From: a virus
Taxonomy: Duplodnaviria; Heunggongvirae; Uroviricota; Caudoviricetes
Virus record (IMG/VR): IMGVR_UViG_2751185961_000003
Location: 1 to 7,753 of that record
Length of the DNA stretch: 7,753 nucleotides
Reading direction: 5' to 3' (one strand)
The position numbers and the translations under genes are program-made. The notes under the pieces were generated by a model. That model saw nothing but the letters and a program-made list of their open reading frames with translations, ran no database searches and had not been told where the DNA came from. Shown piece by piece: positions 1 to 7,753 of this stretch; positions within the stretch are counted from its first letter, which is position 1; the number at the start of each line of letters is the position of its first letter.

Positions 1-95
1 GCCAGGTCATAAACCTCTTCGGCAGTGACATCGCTGTTCAGTCCCATTTCATGGCGATATATGATTTTTTCTACTCGTTGTTTTGTGATCGTCAT
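1..95 (-). CDS. Hypothetical protein, N-terminal part only (runs off the window start); begins MTITKQRVEKIIYRHEMGLNSDVTAEEVYDL
   Basis: ATG at 93-95 on minus strand with purine-rich GGAG/AAGAG upstream; open frame to position 1; same orientation as the neighbouring operon. Not in ORF track because it is truncated. Confidence 0.4.
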   Translation of the reverse strand, partial: MTITKQRVEKIIYRHEMGLNSDVTAEEVYDL

Positions 96-125
96 TTTTC
101 TCTTCACTCCGATATACAAGGATTA

Positions 126-365
126 CTACACCCCCTCTGCTGATTGCGCGAGCTGGATCCCCTGGTTCCATGCCGTCAATTCCGAAGGCTTCGAAAATGC
201 ATCCATTGCCTTCTGGCGTTGCTCCTGCTTACGGCGTTTATTCCATTTTTTCATGAACAACAGTGACAGCCATCGTCCGCTGCTGAACATGATGTAGAAA
301 TAACCAAGAAGTGCCAGGCCGGTGTTCAGGGCCATATCAATCGTTATCGCCGGGTCAATATTCAC
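126..365 (-). CDS. Small predicted membrane protein (79 aa): N-terminal hydrophobic helix then a highly basic K/R-rich segment
   Basis: GTG start at 363-365 preceded by AGGAGG with 6-nt spacer; start overlaps the 3' end of the upstream gene; hydrophobic stretch LALLGYFYIMF followed by KKWNKRRKQEQRQK. Confidence 0.5.
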   Translation of the reverse strand: MNIDPAITIDMALNTGLALLGYFYIMFSSGRWLSLLFMKKWNKRRKQEQRQKAMDAFSKPSELTAWNQGIQLAQSAEGV

Positions 366-657
366 TGCCCACCTCCTGAAAAATCACCGCATGGCCCAGT
401 TTCTCCGCCAGTGCCAGCTCAGCCCTTGCACCTGCCGACTGCTGCCAGCCTTTCAGCATGTAAACCGCATCCACGCAACGGAGCATTGCCATGCAAATAT
501 CCATGTAGTGTGGTTGAGTCAGCCCGTCCGGAAGTACTGCCGGGTTTAAAACGGTATGCCCTTCCCGTTTCAGTACCTCTTCCGCATTGTGAAACGCCTC
601 ACGGTTGAAATTTTTATACCCGGTCATTGGACCGGCGATATAGACTCTCACCCTCAC
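355..657 (-). CDS. DUF4406 / nucleoside 2-deoxyribosyltransferase-like prophage protein (100 aa)
   Basis: Translation MRVRVYIAGPMTGYKNFNREAFHNAEEVLKREGHTVLNPA matches the family's N-terminal YIAGPMTG motif from memory; GTG start at 655-657 with AGGAGG 7 nt upstream; GTGA start/stop overlap with the upstream gene. Confidence 0.65.
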   Translation of the reverse strand: MRVRVYIAGPMTGYKNFNREAFHNAEEVLKREGHTVLNPAVLPDGLTQPHYMDICMAMLRCVDAVYMLKGWQQSAGARAELALAEKLGHAVIFQEVGSEY

Positions 658-1046
658 TCCATCACCTCCTGAAAGTTTCCCCGATAGAACGCCAGCACAC
701 GCTGCATAACTTCGCTCCTCCTGCTCTCACGACAAATTATGTTCTGCCGTCTGTTGTAACGACGTATTTCTCCGTCAGGTAACTTTCGAATCAGTGTCGG
801 GTCAGCAGCCTTCTCCGGTGTCTTACGCCATACGCGATACGCCTGCTCTGATGGAAATACCCCGCAACCAGAGAGCCAGACATCACCACTGGCCGCAAGC
901 GCACCAGATAAACGACGAATAGCGGTCTTACTGACACCCGTTTTATCTGCCAGTTGTCGAAAAGTTTCTCGTCCGCTCAGGCGCACGAATTCCACAATGC
1001 GCGCCTTCACTTCTTCCCGCTCTTCTGGTGTAAATACTTTTGCCAT
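654..1046 (-). CDS. Helix-turn-helix domain protein (about 130 aa), function unknown
   Basis: ATG at 1044-1046 with GGAGG 5 nt upstream; the ORF-track start at 1061 is a TTG extension. HTH-like segment RQLADKTGVSKTAIRRL. Confidence 0.65.
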   Translation of the reverse strand: MAKVFTPEEREEVKARIVEFVRLSGRETFRQLADKTGVSKTAIRRLSGALAASGDVWLSGCGVFPSEQAYRVWRKTPEKAADPTLIRKLPDGEIRRYNRRQNIICRESRRSEVMQRVLAFYRGNFQEVME

Positions 1047-1061
1047 AAGCGCCTCCGGCAA

Positions 1062-1787
1062 TCACTTTTCCGACACAATACGACCGGATGAATCGACAAT
1101 CTGTCGAACAATATCCCGGTGCTTGTTCAGCTCCCGCAGCGCGGCGCAGACTCGCTCCCACTTCTGAACCTGACCTTTTGCCCGGCGCAGCTCGCGGTTA
1201 GCCACATGCAGCGATGGTAAAATCAGACCATCCGGATGTTTTCTGGTGAACGACGGCTGTGACTGCACTGTGACCGCCACACTTTCCGTTTTTATTTCTT
1301 CCTGTGTTTCTGCTTCCCGGACAGGTAACGCAACACCTGCTGGCTGAGGAAAGGCTTTACCATCGGTTTCCGCTACGGATGCAGCTTCCGGCTCTGCCGG
1401 TAAATCAGCGCCCGGTATGCAGTAACGAAATTTACCGCCCTGATTCACGCGAATCAGACGCCCTTTGCTGATTGCCATGGCCAGCGATGAATTCGCCCGG
1501 CGGGAGGTAATCCCGAACATCAGTGCCAGCTCATCCGCCGTTTGTGGGCCATGTTGTTCAATCGCCTCAGTCAGCATTTGCGCTGTCACTTTCGGTACCG
1601 GTGACACCGGTTCACTTTCACCAGCCTGAATCAGCCGCCACATCGAACCCTTGTTATCCGCTTCACCGCGGCGCTTCAGTTTCCACAGTTCGTTGACCGC
1701 ATCTTCACGGCTGATTCCAAGGCGGGCCGCCACTACCTGTGAAGAGGCTCTTTTCAGTGCTTTCAGTGCGTCAAATACGGTTTCCAT
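1062..1787 (-). CDS. Hypothetical prophage protein (about 241 aa) with two winged-helix-like segments; possibly DUF1627-like
   Basis: ATG at 1785-1787 with GGAGG 8 nt upstream; the ORF-track start at 1805 is a TTG extension. Family guess is from memory only. Confidence 0.6.
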
Positions 1788-1820
1788 TAAAATTTCCTCC
1801 GACAAAATCGTTTCTCAGAT

Positions 1821-2387
1821 TCAAATAAAACCAGCTGCCTTCCGGCGTTCGTATTCCTGTTTCAGCCGTTCAATTGGCGTTGGCCCTTGCGGGTGTTTCG
1901 CCCCTTCCAGTTGTCGTCGCACTGGCGGAACACTCATCCCGTTACCAACATGCTTTGCCCATTTCGTCAGTTGCCGTTCCGCAAGTCGTTTTAACTCACC
2001 CTGCGTCATCTGGCGCTCAATCCCTCTGGTACGCATTTCGAGGCAGATGTGGTACAGCACAGGCTGTGGCCACGGGTATTTATCACTCCCGTCGTATCGC
2101 CAGGATTCATTGCGCCAGCGCCGGTACTCTTCCATCACGGCATCCACCGTAAGACCAAATGGATTTGCCCCACTCTCCGAAATCAGCGCAACAAACTCAG
2201 CCAGGTCCGGGGGCCACGTTTCACCCGCCCGGCAGCGGTCCATGCACTGACGGCAGACCAGCCGGATTTGCTGTTCAGTCATCGTGCCAATCTGGGCAAT
2301 CCAGAGCTTCGAAGGTGCGGCCCCGTTCTTCTGAGTCCAGCGGTTCGAATACACCTCCCCCATAAGCTCCCACAGCTTCCAGGCCAT
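1821..2387 (-). CDS. Lambda P-like replication protein (putative DnaB helicase loader)
   Basis: Translation (WIAQIGTMTEQQ..., PPDLAEFVAL, YPW, MTQGELKRLAERQ) aligns by eye with lambda P as I remember it. Start uncertain: ATG 2385-2387 (MAWKLW) or 2361-2363, both with weak SD; the ORF-track N-terminus to 2483 looks non-coding. Confidence 0.65.
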   Translation of the reverse strand: MAWKLWELMGEVYSNRWTQKNGAAPSKLWIAQIGTMTEQQIRLVCRQCMDRCRAGETWPPDLAEFVALISESGANPFGLTVDAVMEEYRRWRNESWRYDGSDKYPWPQPVLYHICLEMRTRGIERQMTQGELKRLAERQLTKWAKHVGNGMSVPPVRRQLEGAKHPQGPTPIERLKQEYERRKAAGFI

Positions 2388-2991
2388 TTCCGTTGCTGAT
2401 AAATCCGTTGTCTCGTTCCCACTGTTCGCGTGCTGCCCGGATTTCCTGAACTGCCCGTGATGCCGTGCCACCTGATGCTGCATGGCTTACCCCCTTGCTG
2501 ACTGGTTTTACCTGTGCCCTGACGTGCTGCACGTGGCGGGCAAATTTCTGCTCCCACTGAACCTGCGTGAAAACCTTCCCCTCCGCCATCCAGTAATCCC
2601 GGAATGCGGCAAGCTCTGCAGGTGTAAATTCCGGCTCAGGCAGAGCCATACCCCACACTGCTGCCCGTTGTCGAAAATCCGACGACGGCTGCCAGACAGT
2701 AGTCATCGAAAATTTCCCGATCGGTTCGCTCAGGCCGTCCAGGTATTCAGGTTCGGCTGTCTGCAACGGCGCACCATGCGACTCACCGGTTGGAGCACTC
2801 TCGCGCATGCGCGCGTTATGTGTGGGGTTTAATTCTGTATCTGTATCTTTATCTGTCGTGACTTGTCGTGACAGATGCGTGACACGCCGTGACATGTCGT
2901 GACATTTCGTGACGCACTCACCAGAAGGTGGATATACACCGCCATCACTGTTGCGATTGGCTGTCCTGAGACCCTGGCAATGGTTCGCCAT
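2275..2991 (-). CDS. DnaT-like C-terminal domain fragment of a replication initiator (YdaU-like); frame lacks its own convincing start
   Basis: Segment GKFSMTTVWQPSSDFRQRAAVWGMALPEPEFTPAELAAFRDYWMAEGKVFTQVQWEQKFARHVQ closely parallels E. coli DnaT (GKFAMYPDWQPDADF...[20 protein letters not shown]) from memory. Upstream part of this frame runs through the iteron array with no credible SD. Confidence 0.6.
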   Translation of the reverse strand: MANHCQGLRTANRNSDGGVYPPSGECVTKCHDMSRRVTHLSRQVTTDKDTDTELNPTHNARMRESAPTGESHGAPLQTAEPEYLDGLSEPIGKFSMTTVWQPSSDFRQRAAVWGMALPEPEFTPAELAAFRDYWMAEGKVFTQVQWEQKFARHVQHVRAQVKPVSKGVSHAASGGTASRAVQEIRAAREQWERDNGFISNGNGLEAVGAYGGGVFEPLDSEERGRTFEALDCPDWHDD

Positions 2992-3041
2992 TTGGGATCA
3001 TTTGGCATGTCATGCCACAATCTGAGCCAGGCATTAGCCAT
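2829..3041 (-). CDS. N-terminal fragment of the replication initiator (YdaU/DUF1376-like), terminated inside the iteron/AT-rich region
   Basis: ATG at 3039-3041 with GAGG 5 nt upstream; conserved-looking MANAWLRLWHDMPNDPKWRTIARVSGQPIATVMAVYIHLL; stop TAA at 2829-2831; a different frame continues into the DnaT-like domain. Confidence 0.55.
   Translation of the reverse strand: MANAWLRLWHDMPNDPKWRTIARVSGQPIATVMAVYIHLLVSASRNVTTCHGVSRICHDKSRQIKIQIQN
2835..2914. repeat. Iteron-like array: six tandem about 10-bp units (consensus tgtCGTGACa) next to an AT-rich CTGTAT-repeat tract; putative replication origin
   Basis: CGTGAC at 2857, 2867, 2878, 2888, 2898, 2908 (spacing 10, 11, 10, 10, 10); each unit has TGTC/GACA dyad arms; CTGTAT tandem at 2835-2846. 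Confidence 0.7.
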
Positions 3042-3109
3042 ACTCACCTCATCTGATACCGAACTTTACCCTCGAACATCCAGAAGAAATCCGGCATGAA
3101 TATTGTTGG

Positions 3110-3535
3110 TCAATGCACGACAACAGCATTACCAGGCTGACCACCACTGTTAGTCAGGGTGCCCCAGGCGATCGCCGCTGCGACAAAATCATCCACATCT
3201 TTCACCAGCCGATCCCTCCGTTCGACGATCTCACGGTAATATTCAGAGCTGTGACTGCGCATACGGGCCACCAGCAGAGGCGGCATTGCCTTTTCGATCG
3301 CCGGTAACAGAGCCTGAATTTTTTCAACAGCATCAGGGGTGTCTTTATCCAGCCAACGGAAAATTTTCTGGGTATTACGAGCCAGGGCTTCCGGATGGCT
3401 GTCGTCGTACAGTTCCGGGAACGTCATTCCCAGCTCGAAATACGCTTTGGTAATTTTCGCAGCCGGTACTTTTTCGCCGTCCGGATGCGCCCAGACATTC
3501 ATCGCCATGCGGATGTGCTCATGTTTGATTTTCAT
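3110..3535 (-). CDS. YdaT-like (CII-like) prophage regulator, 141 aa
   Basis: ATG at 3533-3535 with GGGAG 7 nt upstream; ATGA overlap with the upstream Cro-like gene; N-terminus MKIKHEHI and gene position (Cro-like, this, replication gene) match the Rac ydaS-ydaT-ydaU arrangement as I recall it. Confidence 0.65.
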   Translation of the reverse strand: MKIKHEHIRMAMNVWAHPDGEKVPAAKITKAYFELGMTFPELYDDSHPEALARNTQKIFRWLDKDTPDAVEKIQALLPAIEKAMPPLLVARMRSHSSEYYREIVERRDRLVKDVDDFVAAAIAWGTLTNSGGQPGNAVVVH

Positions 3536-3786
3536 GAATCAACTCCCATCAGCTTTTTCGTGGTAGTTTTATTTCTGCCAATAGTTAATATTGCATCGGC
3601 AGAAAATAATCCGTTTGATGCAAGAGCGATTTTTTCAGCGTAATTGGTTTCACCGGTATATTCAGTGCGCGGCAATTTCCCGTTATTAATCCACTTGTAG
3701 ATTGCTCTTTGGCTGACACCACAAACGTCGGACACAACAGAAACACGAACAGTTTTGATTACATCTTCAAGTGTGTTCTGGTTCAT
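3532..3786 (-). CDS. Cro/YdaS-like HTH regulator (84 aa)
   Basis: ATG at 3784-3786 with GGAG 5 nt upstream; HTH VSDVCGVSQRAIYKWINNGKLP; divergent from the repressor gene. The ORF-track N-terminal extension to 3858 would cross the promoter region. Confidence 0.7.
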   Translation of the reverse strand: MNQNTLEDVIKTVRVSVVSDVCGVSQRAIYKWINNGKLPRTEYTGETNYAEKIALASNGLFSADAILTIGRNKTTTKKLMGVDS

Positions 3787-3802
3787 ACCATCTCCATAAT
3801 GT

Positions 3803-3865
3803 GAACTTTGGGTACATGATATAGCAGAACTGACAGTACATTCAATAGCGAATATCATTGAACTT
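3803..3865. promoter_or_regulatory. Divergent immunity-region promoters with operator-like repeats (PRM-like plus-strand and PR-like minus-strand)
   Basis: Plus: -35 cTGACA 3830-3835, 17-bp spacer, -10 TATCAT 3853-3858, 7 bp to the ATG at 3866 (leaderless geometry). Minus: -35 TTGAAT (plus 3840-3845), -10 TATATC (plus 3818-3823). Repeats GAAC-N5-GTACAT at 3803-3817 and 3827-3841; dyad TTCAAT-N10-ATTGAA at 3841-3862. Confidence 0.5.
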
Positions 3866-4285
3866 ATGGTTCATGAAGATAAAGCGCGTAAAGAGTTCGC
3901 CAGCAGGCTTGCGCTAGCCTGTGAAAACGCTGGTTATGAACAACACGGGAGGCAGGCAGAAATTGCCCGTCGAATGAAATTAACACCAAAAGCGGTCAGT
4001 AAATGGTTTAATGGCGAAACAATTCCTCGACGAGAGAAATTGAGGGAATTAGCAGCACTCATAGGAACAACGCCAACATATCTTTTGGGCGAGGATACAG
4101 AAAGTAGTGCGCAGGCACGCTTCTATCAGGAGTTAAACCCAAAACAAAAAATCATCATTGACCTTCTAGACGAGCTACCTGACAGTGAAACAGATGAGCT
4201 TTTAAAAACTCTTGAGGAAAAAAAACAGAAGTACAATGCAATTTACGAAGAATTAACACGAAAGAAAAAACAAAAAGCCTCTTGA
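3866..4285 (+). CDS. DicA/RacR-type (cI-like) HTH repressor without peptidase domain, 139 aa
   Basis: N-terminal XRE-type HTH (QAEIARRMKLTPKAVSKWFNGETIPRREKLRELAALIGTTPTYLLGED); acidic/coiled C-terminus (LLDELPDSETDELLKTLEEKKQ) with DicA-like architecture; no SD, consistent with a leaderless transcript. Confidence 0.75.
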   Translation: MVHEDKARKEFASRLALACENAGYEQHGRQAEIARRMKLTPKAVSKWFNGETIPRREKLRELAALIGTTPTYLLGEDTESSAQARFYQELNPKQKIIIDLLDELPDSETDELLKTLEEKKQKYNAIYEELTRKKKQKAS

Positions 4286-4373
4286 TCCAGCATAAATCCG
4301 GTAACATCCCTCCGGGTTTGTGCTTCACTTAATCCCTCCTCATTTTTTTAAACATAAAATGTACTAAAAGTAC

Positions 4374-4406
4374 TTTACACAAATGAACAAAAAGTACATC
4401 ATACAT
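4374..4406 (+). promoter_or_regulatory. Candidate left-operon promoter/operator (OL-like): third copy of GAAC-N5-GTACAT
   Basis: GAAC 4385-4388, GTACAT 4394-4399, same spacing as the two copies at 3803-3841; TTTACA at 4374-4379 is a possible -35, with only weak -10 candidates 17 bp downstream; nearby GTACT-AAAA-GTACT at 4361-4375. Confidence 0.35.
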
Positions 4407-4578
4407 CTACCAACCCACCCCGCTCCACAGAACGCCAGGCAATACTTCGAGTTACCAGGCAGTGGCAAGGGGTTAAGTAGCCAGCCCGAGGCGTAAGAAC
4501 ATGACGGCAGGGTTCAACTTTAACTATGCAGCAGGTTTTTGTTCCGCTCCCCCGGCGTTAAGGGGAAATGAGGTCAGC

Positions 4579-4731
4579 ATGGATACTATCGAGCTTGGCA
4601 ACAGCGAATCTCTGGTATGCGGCGTGTTTCCCAACCAGTACGGCACGTTTACCGCGATGACGTATACCAAAAGTAAAACGTTTAAAACCGAAGCTGGCGC
4701 GCATCGCTGGTTAGCAAGAAACTCCGACTGA
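4579..4731 (+). CDS. YdfA-like small protein (DUF1391), 50 aa
   Basis: ATG 4579-4581 with GAGG 5 nt upstream; MDTIELGNSESLVCGVFPNQYGTFTAMTYTKSKTFKTEAGAHRWLARNSD resembles Qin YdfA from memory. ORF-track start at 4501 has no SD. Confidence 0.6.
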   Translation: MDTIELGNSESLVCGVFPNQYGTFTAMTYTKSKTFKTEAGAHRWLARNSD

Positions 4732-4742
4732 TGAGGTTGACG

Positions 4743-5144
4743 ATGGAATTTAAAGATTTACCAGTACCATTCCAGGAAATGGCATCGAATGCGGTTCGCT
4801 CTCAACTGGCGACTCTTGACCTGAGTACCGTAGAAAAAGAAACCATCGATACTATATCCGGTAACGTGCGTCGTGCCTTTATAGGTCTGTATGAAGAGAA
4901 GCGCCTATTCGGCGGACAGAATTCGCCTGAAAACAAGAATCAAGCAAATGATGAGAAGCTGAAACACATTATCGCCTTACTTTTGGAAGACGCAAAACGT
5001 CTACAGCAACTGGAACCAAATGCAGGCACAGAGGCCCGCATTTGGATTGCCATGAAATCACTCAAATGTGAAAGCAGTGATTATTTCAAAACAACAATTA
5101 AAACTACTCAACTTTCGGGAGAGCTACTGAAGAAATTGCCATAA
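4743..5144 (+). CDS. Hypothetical protein (133 aa), no family recognised; sits where ydfB/ydfC lie in Qin
   Basis: ATG 4743-4745 with GAGG 6 nt upstream; alternatively ATG 4731 overlapping the upstream stop (TGATG). Helical-looking, no transmembrane segment. Confidence 0.6.
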   Translation: MEFKDLPVPFQEMASNAVRSQLATLDLSTVEKETIDTISGNVRRAFIGLYEEKRLFGGQNSPENKNQANDEKLKHIIALLLEDAKRLQQLEPNAGTEARIWIAMKSLKCESSDYFKTTIKTTQLSGELLKKLP

Positions 5145-5383
5145 GAGCATGGTCTTTCTCTTGTTCTGCAAGATGAGCATTAATACCTGGTATGGTTTTT
5201 TCAAATTTATCTATCTGTTGAATAACAACTTCGCGGTATACGTTTGTTTTTGTACCACCAAGCGCAGCCGTTAATGCAGAAAGCATATTTAGTATCATAT
5301 CAGTACGATATGAAAAGAATCCTGATAGCTTCATCTTGTTTTTCAATAATAGATTGCAGGGCCTCAATTTGCTTTTTATCCAT
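5104..5383 (-). CDS. AT-rich convergent ORF with frame ambiguity: 27-aa peptide from the SD-supported ATG, or a frameshifted about 90-aa protein
   Basis: AGGAGG (5389-5394) 5 nt upstream of ATG 5381-5383 gives MDKKQIEALQSIIEKQDEAIRILFISY then stop; the 94-aa track ORF is in another frame whose GTG start (5386-5388) abuts the SD. 3' end overlaps the plus-strand gene by 41 nt. Confidence 0.3.
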
Positions 5384-5704
5384 TTCACCCTCCTGAGGGT
5401 TGGTAATTAAGGAGTTCTCCACGGGTCAGGTGGAGTGCGTGCGCCGGACACGGGTGAGCATCCGGCACTGACAGTTTACTGAAAGGATATGTCCCTGAAA
5501 AGTCAGGGCATAACGCGAAAGCGCACGGCGAAATTGGTCTCTCTGTACGGTGTCGTTAAATTTAGTTCGACCGTGCACTTCCGGTTGTGGCACTCCGCGA
5601 AATGGCGCGGCGGTAAGTATGGCTGGGGTTTCCTCCATTGCTCCAGAAAATGCACCGGGTTGTCAGGTTGACCATACGCTTAAGTGACAGCCCCGCCACA
5701 ATAC

Positions 5705-5762
5705 CCATGCGTAGTCTTTGGTGGCATCAGTTCTACTCCGTGACTGCTCTGCCACCCTTTTT
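5705..5762 (+). ncRNA. dicF: DicF-like small RNA (cell-division-inhibiting sRNA homolog)
   Basis: 3' 41 nt (tttggtggcatcagttctactccgtgactgctctgccaccc + T5) about 90% identical to E. coli K-12 DicF as I remember it, with a compensatory stem change (GGCGG/CCGCC to GGTGG/CCACC); located just upstream of a dicB homolog. Confidence 0.55.
5720..5762 (+). terminator. Intrinsic terminator-like hairpin forming the DicF 3' end
   Basis: Stem GGTGGCA (5720-5726) / TGCCACC (5750-5756) followed by CTTTTT (5757-5762). Confidence 0.5.
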
Positions 5763-5944
5763 AAAGTGAATTTTGTGATGCGGTGAATGCGGCTATGCGC
5801 ACGCGGAACAGTTAAAACCGTAAAGTGGTCTTTTACGGGGCGTAACGGGCATCCTTCTGTATTCCGGCGTTAATTGTTAACTGGTTAACGTCACCTGGAG
5901 GCACCAGGCACTGCATCACAAAATTCATTGTTGAGGACGCGATA

Positions 5945-6133
5945 ATGGAAACGTTATTACCAAACGTTAATACGTCTGAAGGTTGTTTTGATATTGGTGT
6001 TCTGCTCAGTAACCGGGAGTTTACGGAAGATGCCATTAAGATGAGAAAATATGAACCTTATCTTCTCAATGATAATTCCATACTTTCCAGAATTGCCCTT
6101 CTTGAACTTGGTATTATCGGAGAACAGCAGTGA
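5945..6133 (+). CDS. dicB: DicB-like cell division inhibitor, 62 aa
   Basis: METLLPNVNTSEGCFDIGVLLSN... closely resembles K-12 DicB N-terminus (MKTLLPNVNTSEGCFEIGV...) from memory; GAGG 8 nt upstream of ATG; follows the dicF-like element. Confidence 0.8.
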   Translation: METLLPNVNTSEGCFDIGVLLSNREFTEDAIKMRKYEPYLLNDNSILSRIALLELGIIGEQQ

Positions 6134-6318
6134 CTTCAGCGTTTGCACTGATAATGACCGTTTTTCTTATAACGGGTGAGCCGCAGAATGTGATTACCGG
6201 AATTTATGACAGTAAGTCATCCTGCATTCAGGTAAGGGACGAACAAAAAATCCCCGGTGAATGCCTCCCGTTAAAAAAAGTATCGCTGTACCTGAATAAC
6301 GAAACACCGGCTGGATAA
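6130..6318 (+). CDS. YdfD-like small protein (62 aa)
   Basis: GTG start overlapping the dicB stop (GTGA) with GGAG 7 nt upstream; MTSAFALIMTVFLITGEP... has a hydrophobic N-terminus and sits where ydfD follows dicB in Qin. Confidence 0.6.
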   Translation: MTSAFALIMTVFLITGEPQNVITGIYDSKSSCIQVRDEQKIPGECLPLKKVSLYLNNETPAG

Positions 6319-6410
6319 CCCGCCAGCCATATTAACGCCATACCAACGGATTAAAAATGCCAGCAATGGCAGGAATTTGTTCATCCTTAAAATGGTTATG
6401 AGGTTTATCA

Positions 6411-7753
6411 ATGAACGCTGATAAAGAAGAAATTGCACTATATTACGAAGCCAAAAATGACAAAGTCAGAAAACGCCTTGGGATTAAAGGTGGTTTTTAC
6501 TGGCGCACAGCAAAAAAATTATCGGTTGCAATATCACGCGGTGTTGCTGCAATGGACGATGCCGGATTTGACGAAGAGGATTTTAAAAAACCCATCCGCG
6601 TCCATTTACCCGTTGTGAATGACCTTCCACCGGAAGGTGTGTTTGATACTGAATTCTGCAACCGATACGAAAAAGGCGGAGAAGATGGTATCACAATGAT
6701 ATTTATAGCGCCCTCCCCCTCAGTTCAGGACAAACCAGCCAGCACTGACAATACCAACGTCAATGGCGAAGACATGGCTGAGATTGAGGATAATATGCTC
6801 CTGCCGATTTCCGGTCAGGAACTGCCCATTCGCTGGCTTGCGCAACATGGCAGCGAAAAACCGGTAACGCACGTTTCACGAGAAGAACTTCAGGCATTAC
6901 ATATCGCACGAGCTGAAGAACTACCGGCTGTTACTGGCCTGGCTATTTCCCACAACACAAAGCTGCTCGACCCGCTGGAGATTCGCGACCTTCACAAATT
7001 GGTACGCGACACTGACAAAGTTTTCCCTAATCCCGTTAATTCCAGTCTGGGGTTCATGACTGCTTTTTTCGAAGCATACCTGGACACTGACTATACCGAT
7101 CGAGGTCTGCTGACAAAAGAGTGGATGAAAGGAAATCGTGTTTCTCGCATCACCCGCACGGCTTCCGGTGCAAATGCCGGTGGCGGAAATAAAACCGATC
7201 GTAATCCTGACTTAGTACACACCCTCGATACTCTGGATGTGGAGGCTGCAGCAGCCACGCTTCCGATGGATTTTAATATTTATGAAATTCCCGGGAGCGT
7301 TTATCGTCGCGCAAAAGAAATCGTCCTGAAAAAAGAAAGTCCGTTCAGGGAATGGTCCGCAGCACTTCGCGCAACCCCTGGTATCCTGGACTATTCCCGC
7401 GCAGCTATTTTTGCACTTATCCGAAGCGCCCACCCTGAGTTTTATCACTACCCGGGGCGCCTTCAGGGGTATATCAATGCCAACCTGACAGAAACTGATC
7501 ACGAGAATCCCACAGCTGAAACGCTCATGGCTGCCCGGCATACACCGGAAAAAGATATCCTGGAAGAAATTAACGGCGGACTGGCTGCTGAGTGCAAAAC
7601 AGAAGAAGAAAAAAATGATGAAGATAACCCGCAGCCGCTGGATGACAAGTCACAGGTAAAAGTTACCGCTGACGAAGTAAACAAAATTATGCAGGCAGCC
7701 AATATCAGCCAGCCTGACGCCGATAAGTTGCTTGCTGCCTCTCGCGGAGAATT
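6411..7753 (+). CDS. Large RecE-like (exodeoxyribonuclease VIII, N-terminal region) ORF, truncated at the window end (447 codons seen, no stop)
   Basis: ATG 6411 with GAGG 7 nt upstream; my own translation is open to position 7753. Segments NVNGEDMAEIEDNMLLPISGQELPIRWLAQHGSEKPVTHVSR and KLLAASRGE match my recollection of Rac RecE. Absent from the ORF track because it lacks a stop. Confidence 0.55.
   Translation, partial: MNADKEEIALYYEAKNDKVRKRLGIKGGFYWRTAKKLSVAISRGVAAMDDAGFDEEDFKKPIRVHLPVVNDLPPEGVFDTEFCNRYEKGGEDGITMIFIAPSPSVQDKPASTDNTNVNGEDMAEIEDNMLLPISGQELPIRWLAQHGSEKPVTHVSREELQALHIARAEELPAVTGLAISHNTKLLDPLEIRDLHKLVRDTDKVFPNPVNSSLGFMTAFFEAYLDTDYTDRGLLTKEWMKGNRVSRITRTASGANAGGGNKTDRNPDLVHTLDTLDVEAAAATLPMDFNIYEIPGSVYRRAKEIVLKKESPFREWSAALRATPGILDYSRAAIFALIRSAHPEFYHYPGRLQGYINANLTETDHENPTAETLMAARHTPEKDILEEINGGLAAECKTEEEKNDEDNPQPLDDKSQVKVTADEVNKIMQAANISQPDADKLLAASRGE

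Follow-up and report, generated by a model that had tools for sequence, protein, structure and literature searches.

The best-described relative of the locus considered here is the dicBF operon of the Qin prophage of Escherichia coli K-12, in which the small RNA (sRNA) DicF derives from a polycistronic transcript starting at the DicA-repressed promoter dicBp (PMC10448788, PMC9438474 and PMC5069750, citing Faubladier, 1990), no internal promoter having been found (PMC10448788). RNase III creates the 5′ end of a 190-nucleotide (nt) species (PMC10448788) and RNase E the 5′ end of the 53-nt DicF (PMC10448788, PMC9438474, PMC5069750), and the 3′ end is provided either by an intrinsic terminator or, on read-through transcripts, by an RNase III cut that yields a 72-nt DicF (PMC9438474, PMC5069750). 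A second related group comprises STnc100 and the related PasD, which are prophage sRNAs; PasD was recovered by RIL-seq (the ligation and sequencing of interacting RNAs) on Hfq in enteropathogenic E. coli and its function is unknown (bioRxiv 10.64898/2026.05.13.724894). The locus analysed here lies in a 7,753-nt stretch of Caudoviricetes DNA (IMG/VR record IMGVR_UViG_2751185961_000003, positions 1 to 7,753), hereafter the window, in which a hairpin-rich segment at 5400-5944 on the plus strand surrounds a DicF-like element and runs up to dicB. This segment very probably encodes intercistronic RNA that is processed but not translated, within an early-left operon of dicBF type in a Qin-like lambdoid prophage, with its long helices as the likely RNase III substrates. 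The nucleases and cut positions referred to below are those of the K-12 experiments, and by analogy this copy would be cut in the same way.

Synteny and alignment identify the segment as a homolog of the ydfC-dicF-dicB intercistronic sequence of K-12 Qin. End-to-end alignment with the K-12 ydfC-dicF and dicF-dicB spacers gives ∼83% nucleotide identity, and the gene order of the window (DicA-like repressor, YdfA, two open reading frames (ORFs), DicF, DicB and YdfD) is that of a Qin-like lambdoid early-left operon, shared with the dicBF operons of K-12 Qin and of phage Tritos. The likeness to K-12 Qin (Faubladier et al., 1990; Ragunathan et al., 2023, PMC10448788) further includes the second long helix (P1, see below) and, as a pairing of the consensus fold, the upstream one, together with the DicF terminator, the dicB ribosome-binding site and the position of dicB, 16 nt after P1. 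The window differs from K-12 Qin in having two extra ORFs, one per strand, in place of ydfB/ydfC, a longer P3 region, a different DicF 5′ part, a 14-nt deletion over the RNase E site and a C.A mismatch in the upstream helix. Similar sequence can be detected in 4715 of 5426 complete E. coli genomes, mostly in at least two copies, and the match spans at least 80% of the query in 4067 genomes; the nearest full-length E. coli copies are 93-96% identical to the segment.

Two long-range helices, both missed by an earlier reading of the sequence (the first-pass annotation), are formed by 5509-5531 with 5567-5589 and by 5765-5785 with 5909-5929. Following the K-12 scheme, the operon would be transcribed rightwards from a DicA-repressed promoter, and an RNase III cut in the upstream helix would free a pre-DicF of ∼180 nt here and ∼190 nt in K-12. 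DicF (5706-5757) would end in a leaky intrinsic terminator, and transcripts that read through it would carry a 165-nt module (5765-5929) consisting of P1 around the sequence GGUGAAU, P2, P3, P4, UCACC followed by P5, and a candidate pseudoknot involving the P4 loop. An RNase III cut within P1 would then split a 3′-extended DicF from the dicB message and set the 5′ end of the latter. The conserved core may in addition be more than a spacer that merely joins the arms of P1.

The upstream non-coding leader (5400-5705, plus strand), which is the equivalent of the K-12 ydfC-dicF spacer, is strongly conserved in sequence among E. coli prophages. It was aligned with K-12, with Tritos and with 60 unique homologs (61 unique sequences when the window's own is counted). 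Its long helix, between a 5′ arm at 5509-5531 and a 3′ arm at 5567-5589 (both plus strand), contains 20 pairs with small bulges and is found in the K-12 minimum-energy fold as well as in the RNAalifold consensus of the 61 homologs. When the 5′ end of the 190-nt species is transferred to the window via the K-12 alignment and the length of that species, it falls at ∼5577/5578, inside the 3′ arm, and on this basis the helix appears to match the site at which RNase III cuts the K-12 RNA to give the 190-nt pre-DicF. The portion from ∼5498 onward, including the long helix, is retained in nearly all copies. Homology boundaries, which vary among prophages, and insertions of opposite-strand ORFs are clustered in the upstream half, and some copies are interrupted, between the positions that match 5468 and 5498, by ∼600 nt containing an ORF on the opposite strand. 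Such inserts at module borders, found in some prophages, give the leader the character of a modular mosaic that has hot spots for insertion. The insert of locus L032 at the 5468/5498 equivalents measures 592 nt and holds a 143-amino-acid opposite-strand ORF; in loci L111 and L122, ∼860 nt separate P1 from dicB. An Rfam search of the upstream half, permissive to E ≤ 10, returned no family.

The dicF-dicB spacer at 5765-5929 folds with a z-score of −5.3 and is enclosed by P1, an uninterrupted helix of 21 base pairs (bp) between a 5′ arm at 5765-5785 and a 3′ arm at 5909-5929 (plus strand). A helix of this length is matched in none of 300 shuffles, the longest shuffled helix reaching 18 bp. The 3′ end of the 72-nt DicF, 19 nt past DicF, corresponds to ∼5776, which lies 12 nt into P1, and because RNase III leaves a 2-nt 3′ overhang, a cut on the partner strand is predicted to place the start of the dicB messenger RNA (mRNA) near 5920, ∼25 nt before the ATG. 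Within P1, the invariant GGUGAAU is followed by the P2 hairpin GCGGC-UAUGC-GC.CGC (5789-5804), itself invariant in the E. coli and Klebsiella types, and by the hypervariable P3 region (5816-5867), whose sequence and length change from one homolog to another and part of which K-12 lacks. The P4 hairpin (5868-5890) has six Watson-Crick pairs between 5868-5873 and 5885-5890, three optional wobble pairs and the loop UUGUUAACUGG. The last element, UCACC followed by the P5 hairpin CCUGG-AGGCA-CCAGG (5891-5908), is shared with STnc100. Three CACC/CACU repeats can also be recognized around P5 (UCACC-UGGAGG-CACC-AGG-CACU; window 5782-5786 and 5891-5912), each showing complementarity to the invariant GGUG(A) that lies where P1 ends on its inner side, so that alternative registers are allowed.

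To assess covariation, ten modules of the Escherichia type were aligned with ten of the Klebsiella type; in this alignment 99.8% of the cells are paired, a share that falls to 32-39% when partners are slid by 1-3 columns. Fifteen of the 40 module pairs have changed on both sides, nine of them in P1 (of 21 pairs), five in P4 (of nine) and one in P5. Between the two types no change is seen in GGUGAAU, in P2 or in the loops of P4 and P5, and the stems around them have turned over. Among 194 unique instances of the family, 64 variants of the P4 stem keep their pairing. The length of P1 is likewise maintained, at 21 bp in 92 of the 116 copies of the spacer (U..A) type and at 20-24 bp in the Klebsiella type despite nine compensated positions. 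Several module pairs are G.U, which makes the plus-strand module 12 kcal/mol more stable than its minus-strand counterpart, and the stability of the plus strand together with the G.U pairs assigns the structure to plus-strand RNA.

The second type of long-P1 module is carried by Klebsiella pneumoniae prophages and has a different P1 sequence. It lies in the same kind of operon, where a DicA-like repressor and a small ORF come before the module and two tiny ORFs, then a division inhibitor of the lambda Kil family, come after it. The patterns used to retrieve modules did not include dicB or kil; dicB follows all 96 Escherichia-type (type-A) modules that have enough flanking sequence and in each of these 96 loci begins 16 nt after P1, and kil follows 67 of 68 Klebsiella-type (type-B) modules within 124-458 nt. 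Three Klebsiella-type contigs scanned with Rfam at the gathering threshold gave no DicF match. The position of DicF holds unrelated sequence in Klebsiella prophages (contigs L146, 9660-9750, and L340, 2269-2500), and some copies have there a hairpin and short U-run (GGCCAUCUGAUUUUUCAGGUUGGCC-ACCUUUG) that may be an analogous sRNA. A long early-left duplex cut by host RNase III beside a regulated gene is also present in the lambda PL transcript (N leader, sib). The likeness to these lambda sites is an analogy of function; in the present module the duplex encloses a conserved multi-helix core and would define the 3′ end of an sRNA.

The spacer module is related to STnc100 and PasD (Zhu, Shabalina & Storz), with which it shares, in the same order, P1, GGUGAAU, P2, a variable middle, P4, UCACC, the P5 element N-GGAGGCACC-N and GCAC. 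Rfam model RF02076 (STnc100) matches 5755-5977 over its full length (model positions 1-206) with 32.4 bits (E = 3.5e-4), below the 47-bit gathering cutoff, whereas stand-alone STnc100 genes score 55-166 bits. In the reverse direction, a hidden Markov model built from spacer modules finds the stand-alone STnc100 genes by nhmmer at nearly full length (E = 2e-15 to 7e-5), and the relationship is therefore reciprocal even though the window is under the Rfam threshold. A scan of viral contigs for the P5 motif TCACC-N-GGAGGCACC-N′-GGCAC gave 254 matches, in all of which N and N′ are complementary, as either U..A or G..C; the latter form is the mark of stand-alone STnc100 genes, which frequently stand in tandem. 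The two kinds of locus are nevertheless organized differently. P1 has 6-9 bp in stand-alone STnc100 and 21 bp in the spacer module, and P2 (GCGGC...) occupies the place of the STnc100 CCCCC/GGGGG hairpin with a different sequence. Stand-alone STnc100 genes have a single-stranded tail and an intrinsic terminator according to the Rfam model, an AT-rich, promoter-like sequence upstream as judged by eye, and often a tandem arrangement near the late region, whereas the spacer module runs directly into dicB or kil, and a scan of 5000-6200 found no promoter-like or terminator-like site on the plus strand. Embedded in an operon, the dicF-dicB spacer is thus related to the STnc100/PasD sRNA family and is either ancestral to or derived from STnc100-type sRNAs. 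Contigs with tandem STnc100 genes (L049, 7039-7227; L182, 5220-5316) also match the C4 antisense RNA, isrK and isrI and thus contain dense clusters of prophage sRNAs.

A further feature common to spacer modules and stand-alone genes is the complementarity of the P4 loop to the segment that follows P2, in the window between CAGUUAA (5809-5815, plus strand) and UUAACUG in the P4 loop (5877-5883, plus strand). In other members of the family both strands differ and complementarity is kept, as in AUCAGCA/UGCUGAU, CCAGUC/GACUGG and GUGAUACCA/UGGUAUCAC, and covarying complementarity of this kind is seen in L049, L137, L182 and other loci. Among 26 distinct P4 loops, 20 show Watson-Crick complementarity over 5 nt or more to the post-P2 segment that belongs to them, and the mean is 6.44 nt for a loop and its own segment vs 3.64 nt for cross-class pairs. 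The Rfam structure line shows no such pairing, though its format would not display a pseudoknot in any case. These sequence comparisons suggest that an H-type pseudoknot forms between the post-P2 segment and the P4 loop across the STnc100 superfamily.

The first-pass annotation had described the segment as GC-rich, structured and consistent with a processed precursor RNA such as that of DicF in K-12, and on these points it agrees with what is found. The G+C content is 0.54-0.55, compared with 0.37-0.44 on either side, and synteny, the K-12 alignment and the literature on K-12 processing all support a processed precursor. Over the whole 545-nt plus-strand RNA the folding z-score is −3.3, equalled by none of 100 shuffles, and perfect local hairpins (stem of at least 6, loop of 3-14) number six against 1.6 ± 1.7 in dinucleotide shuffles, 11 of 300 of which reach six. 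The four hairpins that the annotation had named are all present where it placed them, and their comparative standing varies. Hairpin 1 (GCCGGA/TCCGGC, 5443-5448 with 5461-5466) is invariant among homologs. Hairpin 2 (CCCTGA-AAAG-TCAGGG, 5493-5508) is left with just 4 bp in the majority, K-12-type copies through an uncompensated change of GGG to GAC. Comparison of homologs lends no support to hairpins 1 and 2 and does not refute them. Hairpin 3 (CCGTAAA/TTTACGG, 5818-5824 with 5832-5838) lies within the P3 region, in a hypervariable insert that is missing in K-12 and absent from most homologs. The fourth (GTTAAC at 5876-5881 and 5884-5889, with CCTGG/CCAGG at 5894-5898 and 5904-5908) resolves into two covarying helices, P4 and P5. 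It is likely that the long-range helices, and not these small hairpins, are the determinants of processing, and the downstream half, as a conserved STnc100-like module, goes beyond an ordinary precursor flank. Covariation across related prophages, the check that the annotation had proposed, supports the structure of the dicF-dicB module and lends none to that of the upstream half.

The DicF-like sRNA itself (5706-5757, plus strand) matches Rfam RF00039 with 58.9 bits (cutoff 48; E = 2.8e-11) and has a divergent 5′ part. Its terminator stem-loop and U5 run occupy 5720-5762, as read from the structure line of the Rfam match and from the sequence. The 5′ part begins CAUGCGUAGUC... here and UUUCUGGUGACG... 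in K-12 (window 5690-5725), the first ∼12 nt being different. The same variant 5′ part occurs in L111, L305 and L287. A degenerate DicF pattern applied to one genome per species gave seven matches, all in Escherichia/Shigella or in probable contaminants of metagenome-assembled genomes, and added no diversity.

Several observations weigh against the interpretation of the segment as a processed precursor of the K-12 kind or narrow what can be drawn from its conservation. None of the 79 pairs predicted in the upstream leader by the RNAalifold consensus is compensated; the absence of covariation there is due to the similarity of the sequences, which have a mean column identity of 94% over the 61 unique copies, and structure in the upstream half is by this test neither supported nor refuted. 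The same half (5400-5705) folds with a z-score of only −1.75, matched by five of 100 shuffles, and the minimum-energy fold of the window uses pairings other than those of the 5509-5531/5567-5589 helix. A C.A mismatch (5520 with 5577) beside the K-12-equivalent cut is peculiar to the window's alignment row, the pair (alignment columns 125-185) being CG in 60 sequences and CA in one. This copy lacks the 14 nt UCUGUUAUCAAUUU in which the RNase E site at the 5′ end of K-12 DicF lies; the maturation of this DicF may therefore differ from that of K-12 DicF, and so may its target range. In the module, covariation rests largely on a single split between Escherichia and Klebsiella plus a few within-type changes, and the loci were gathered by exact-match patterns, which inflates conservation near the seeds. 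The score of the STnc100 match, below the gathering cutoff, counts on the same side.

Among the alternatives, the possibility that the segment encodes small proteins, from a 60-amino-acid plus-strand ORF (5489-5671), a 70-amino-acid minus-strand ORF (5426-5638) or both, draws on hypothetical proteins annotated within the segment in some phage records and on a full-length match of the 60-amino-acid ORF to phrog_8854 (E = 3.6e-33). However, of 59 unique homologs only 11 keep the first ORF intact and only five the second, and none of six ORFs of 43-70 amino acids in 5400-5770 is conserved across these homologs; the protein-level conservation of the two ORFs that the first-pass annotation had named as evidence against its own proposal is therefore not found. 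K-12-type copies of the 60-amino-acid ORF have lost the start codon and have a stop at codon 15. Variable sites show no excess at third codon positions in the frame of either ORF, and the six distinct intact versions of the 60-amino-acid ORF differ entirely by non-synonymous changes or by a swapped C-terminal segment. Because the intact versions differ only in these ways, phrog_8854 looks like a set of repeated ORF calls, and it is probably a family of spurious calls on conserved non-coding DNA. Neither ORF has a match in Pfam, the 70-amino-acid ORF has none among the PHROGs either, the AGGA of the 60-amino-acid ORF stands just 1 nt from its ATG, in keeping with the annotation's statement that no ORF here has Shine-Dalgarno support, and RefSeq annotates nothing at the segment in the matching E. 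coli genomes. The coding interpretation is thus largely refuted and retains hardly any probability. The inverted repeats might instead act as DNA or on the opposite strand, as joints of mosaic recombination, as a promoter for the ORF at 5104-5388 or as part of an antisense RNA ending at 5838-5818. The clustering of homology boundaries and opposite-strand inserts in the upstream half would suit such roles, as would the strong folding of the minus strand (z = −5.0) and a single terminator-like site on it. That site coincides with the variable hairpin at 5838-5818, which most homologs lack, and terminator-like sites are no commoner than in shuffles (1 vs 1.5). K-12, moreover, has no leftward ORF and yet keeps the conserved sequence, and the G.U pairs of P1 and P4 would turn into A.C mismatches if the other strand were the RNA, the plus strand being the more stable by the margin given above. 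A DNA-level or minus-strand reading of the module was rejected on the grounds that the G.U pairs favour the plus strand, and for the segment as a whole such roles are very unlikely.

The structures could also be cis-acting antitermination signals, similar to nut or put, that permit read-through of the DicF terminator into dicB. The operon is the equivalent of PL in a lambdoid phage without a recognisable N, CCCUGAAAAG resembles half of lambda boxB, and in L146, an IMG/VR contig of the Klebsiella type, the module is found ∼440 nt 3′ of a repressor-like ORF, and no gene is annotated in the interval. Phage HK022 offers a comparison in its put sites, where a lambdoid phage without N likewise has structured RNA in its early-left transcript, but put comprises ∼70 nt forming two stem-loops in a V shape, lacks a closing helix and is situated just 3′ of the promoter (PMC9378689), whereas the module described here measures 150-165 nt, is closed by P1 and lies more than 1.5 kilobases from the repressor gene. 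Its position past the DicF terminator is likewise unlike that of put, no boxA could be recognised on reading the sequence, and the boxB-like hairpin is down to 4 bp in most homologs. A put- or nut-type mechanism was accordingly set aside on architecture, position and the decay of the boxB-like hairpin, and is most improbable. A different proposal takes the core of the spacer for a functional RNA in itself. In one form, RNase III would cut both strands of P1 and release an RNA of ∼143 nt (∼5777-5919), closed by 9 bp of P1, as a third product of dicBF; in the other, cutting would be confined to the 5′ strand and the core would stay on the dicB or kil mRNA as a structured 5′ cap, where it might control the stability or translation of the inhibitor message. 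The excised form would be built like a stand-alone STnc100/PasD sRNA that lacks its tail, the 9 bp of P1 remaining after a K-12-type cut agree with the 6-9 bp of stand-alone genes, and the core is homologous to genes that are transcribed as Hfq-bound sRNAs. The invariance of GGUGAAU, P2 and the P4 and P5 loops amid changing stems, and the covarying pseudoknot, point in the same direction. On the other hand, the module has no terminator, no Hfq-binding U-tail and no seed-plus-terminator tail, only 15 nt lie between P1 and the start of dicB, and in addition to the negative promoter scan none was found experimentally in K-12 (PMC10448788). The K-12 dicBF papers report no stable spacer RNA, no search having been aimed at one. 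That the spacer is a pseudoknotted member of the STnc100/PasD superfamily with a function of its own is doubtful, and each of the two forms, the excised RNA and the 5′ cap, is unlikely.

With the segment taken as a processed intercistronic RNA, the genes around it complete the operon. The DicA-like repressor (3866-4285; Pfam HTH_3) is followed by the YdfA protein (Pfam DUF1391), which lies between it and an ORF of unknown function at 4731-5144 (plus strand; phrog_1363). A second ORF of unknown function occupies 5104-5388 on the minus strand (phrog_18692). These two ORFs are convergent, overlap by 41 nt and stand in the place of ydfB/ydfC. The leftward one begins at the border of the conserved leader, and the promoter scan revealed no promoter-like site for it. 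Downstream, the dicB ribosome-binding site GAGGA (5933-5937) and the start codon at 5945 (together 5933-5947, plus strand) lead into DicB (5945-6133, plus strand; Pfam PF05358, 129.5 bits), and the YdfD protein (Pfam DUF1482) is encoded 3′ of dicB.

Most of what is described here is known biology, in that a stretch of unannotated, hairpin-rich DNA around DicF proves to be a known processed precursor and non-coding. Thousands of E. coli genomes have it without annotation in RefSeq, and a spurious ‘protein’ of 59-60 amino acids stands in its place in some phage records and PHROGs. What is new is the placement on the sequence of helices that match the published RNase III sites, the relationship to STnc100/PasD with a closing helix of RNase III length kept across genera and a covarying pseudoknot, and the retention of the module before two division inhibitors that are unrelated to each other, DicB (Escherichia) and Kil (Klebsiella). 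If the spacer core does have a function of its own, the origin of stand-alone prophage sRNA genes would be linked to the leaders of early-left operons. RNase III cleavage of the module may tune the amount of a toxic division inhibitor, and the findings give a testable handle on how prophages meter such inhibitors and bear on the function of the STnc100 core.

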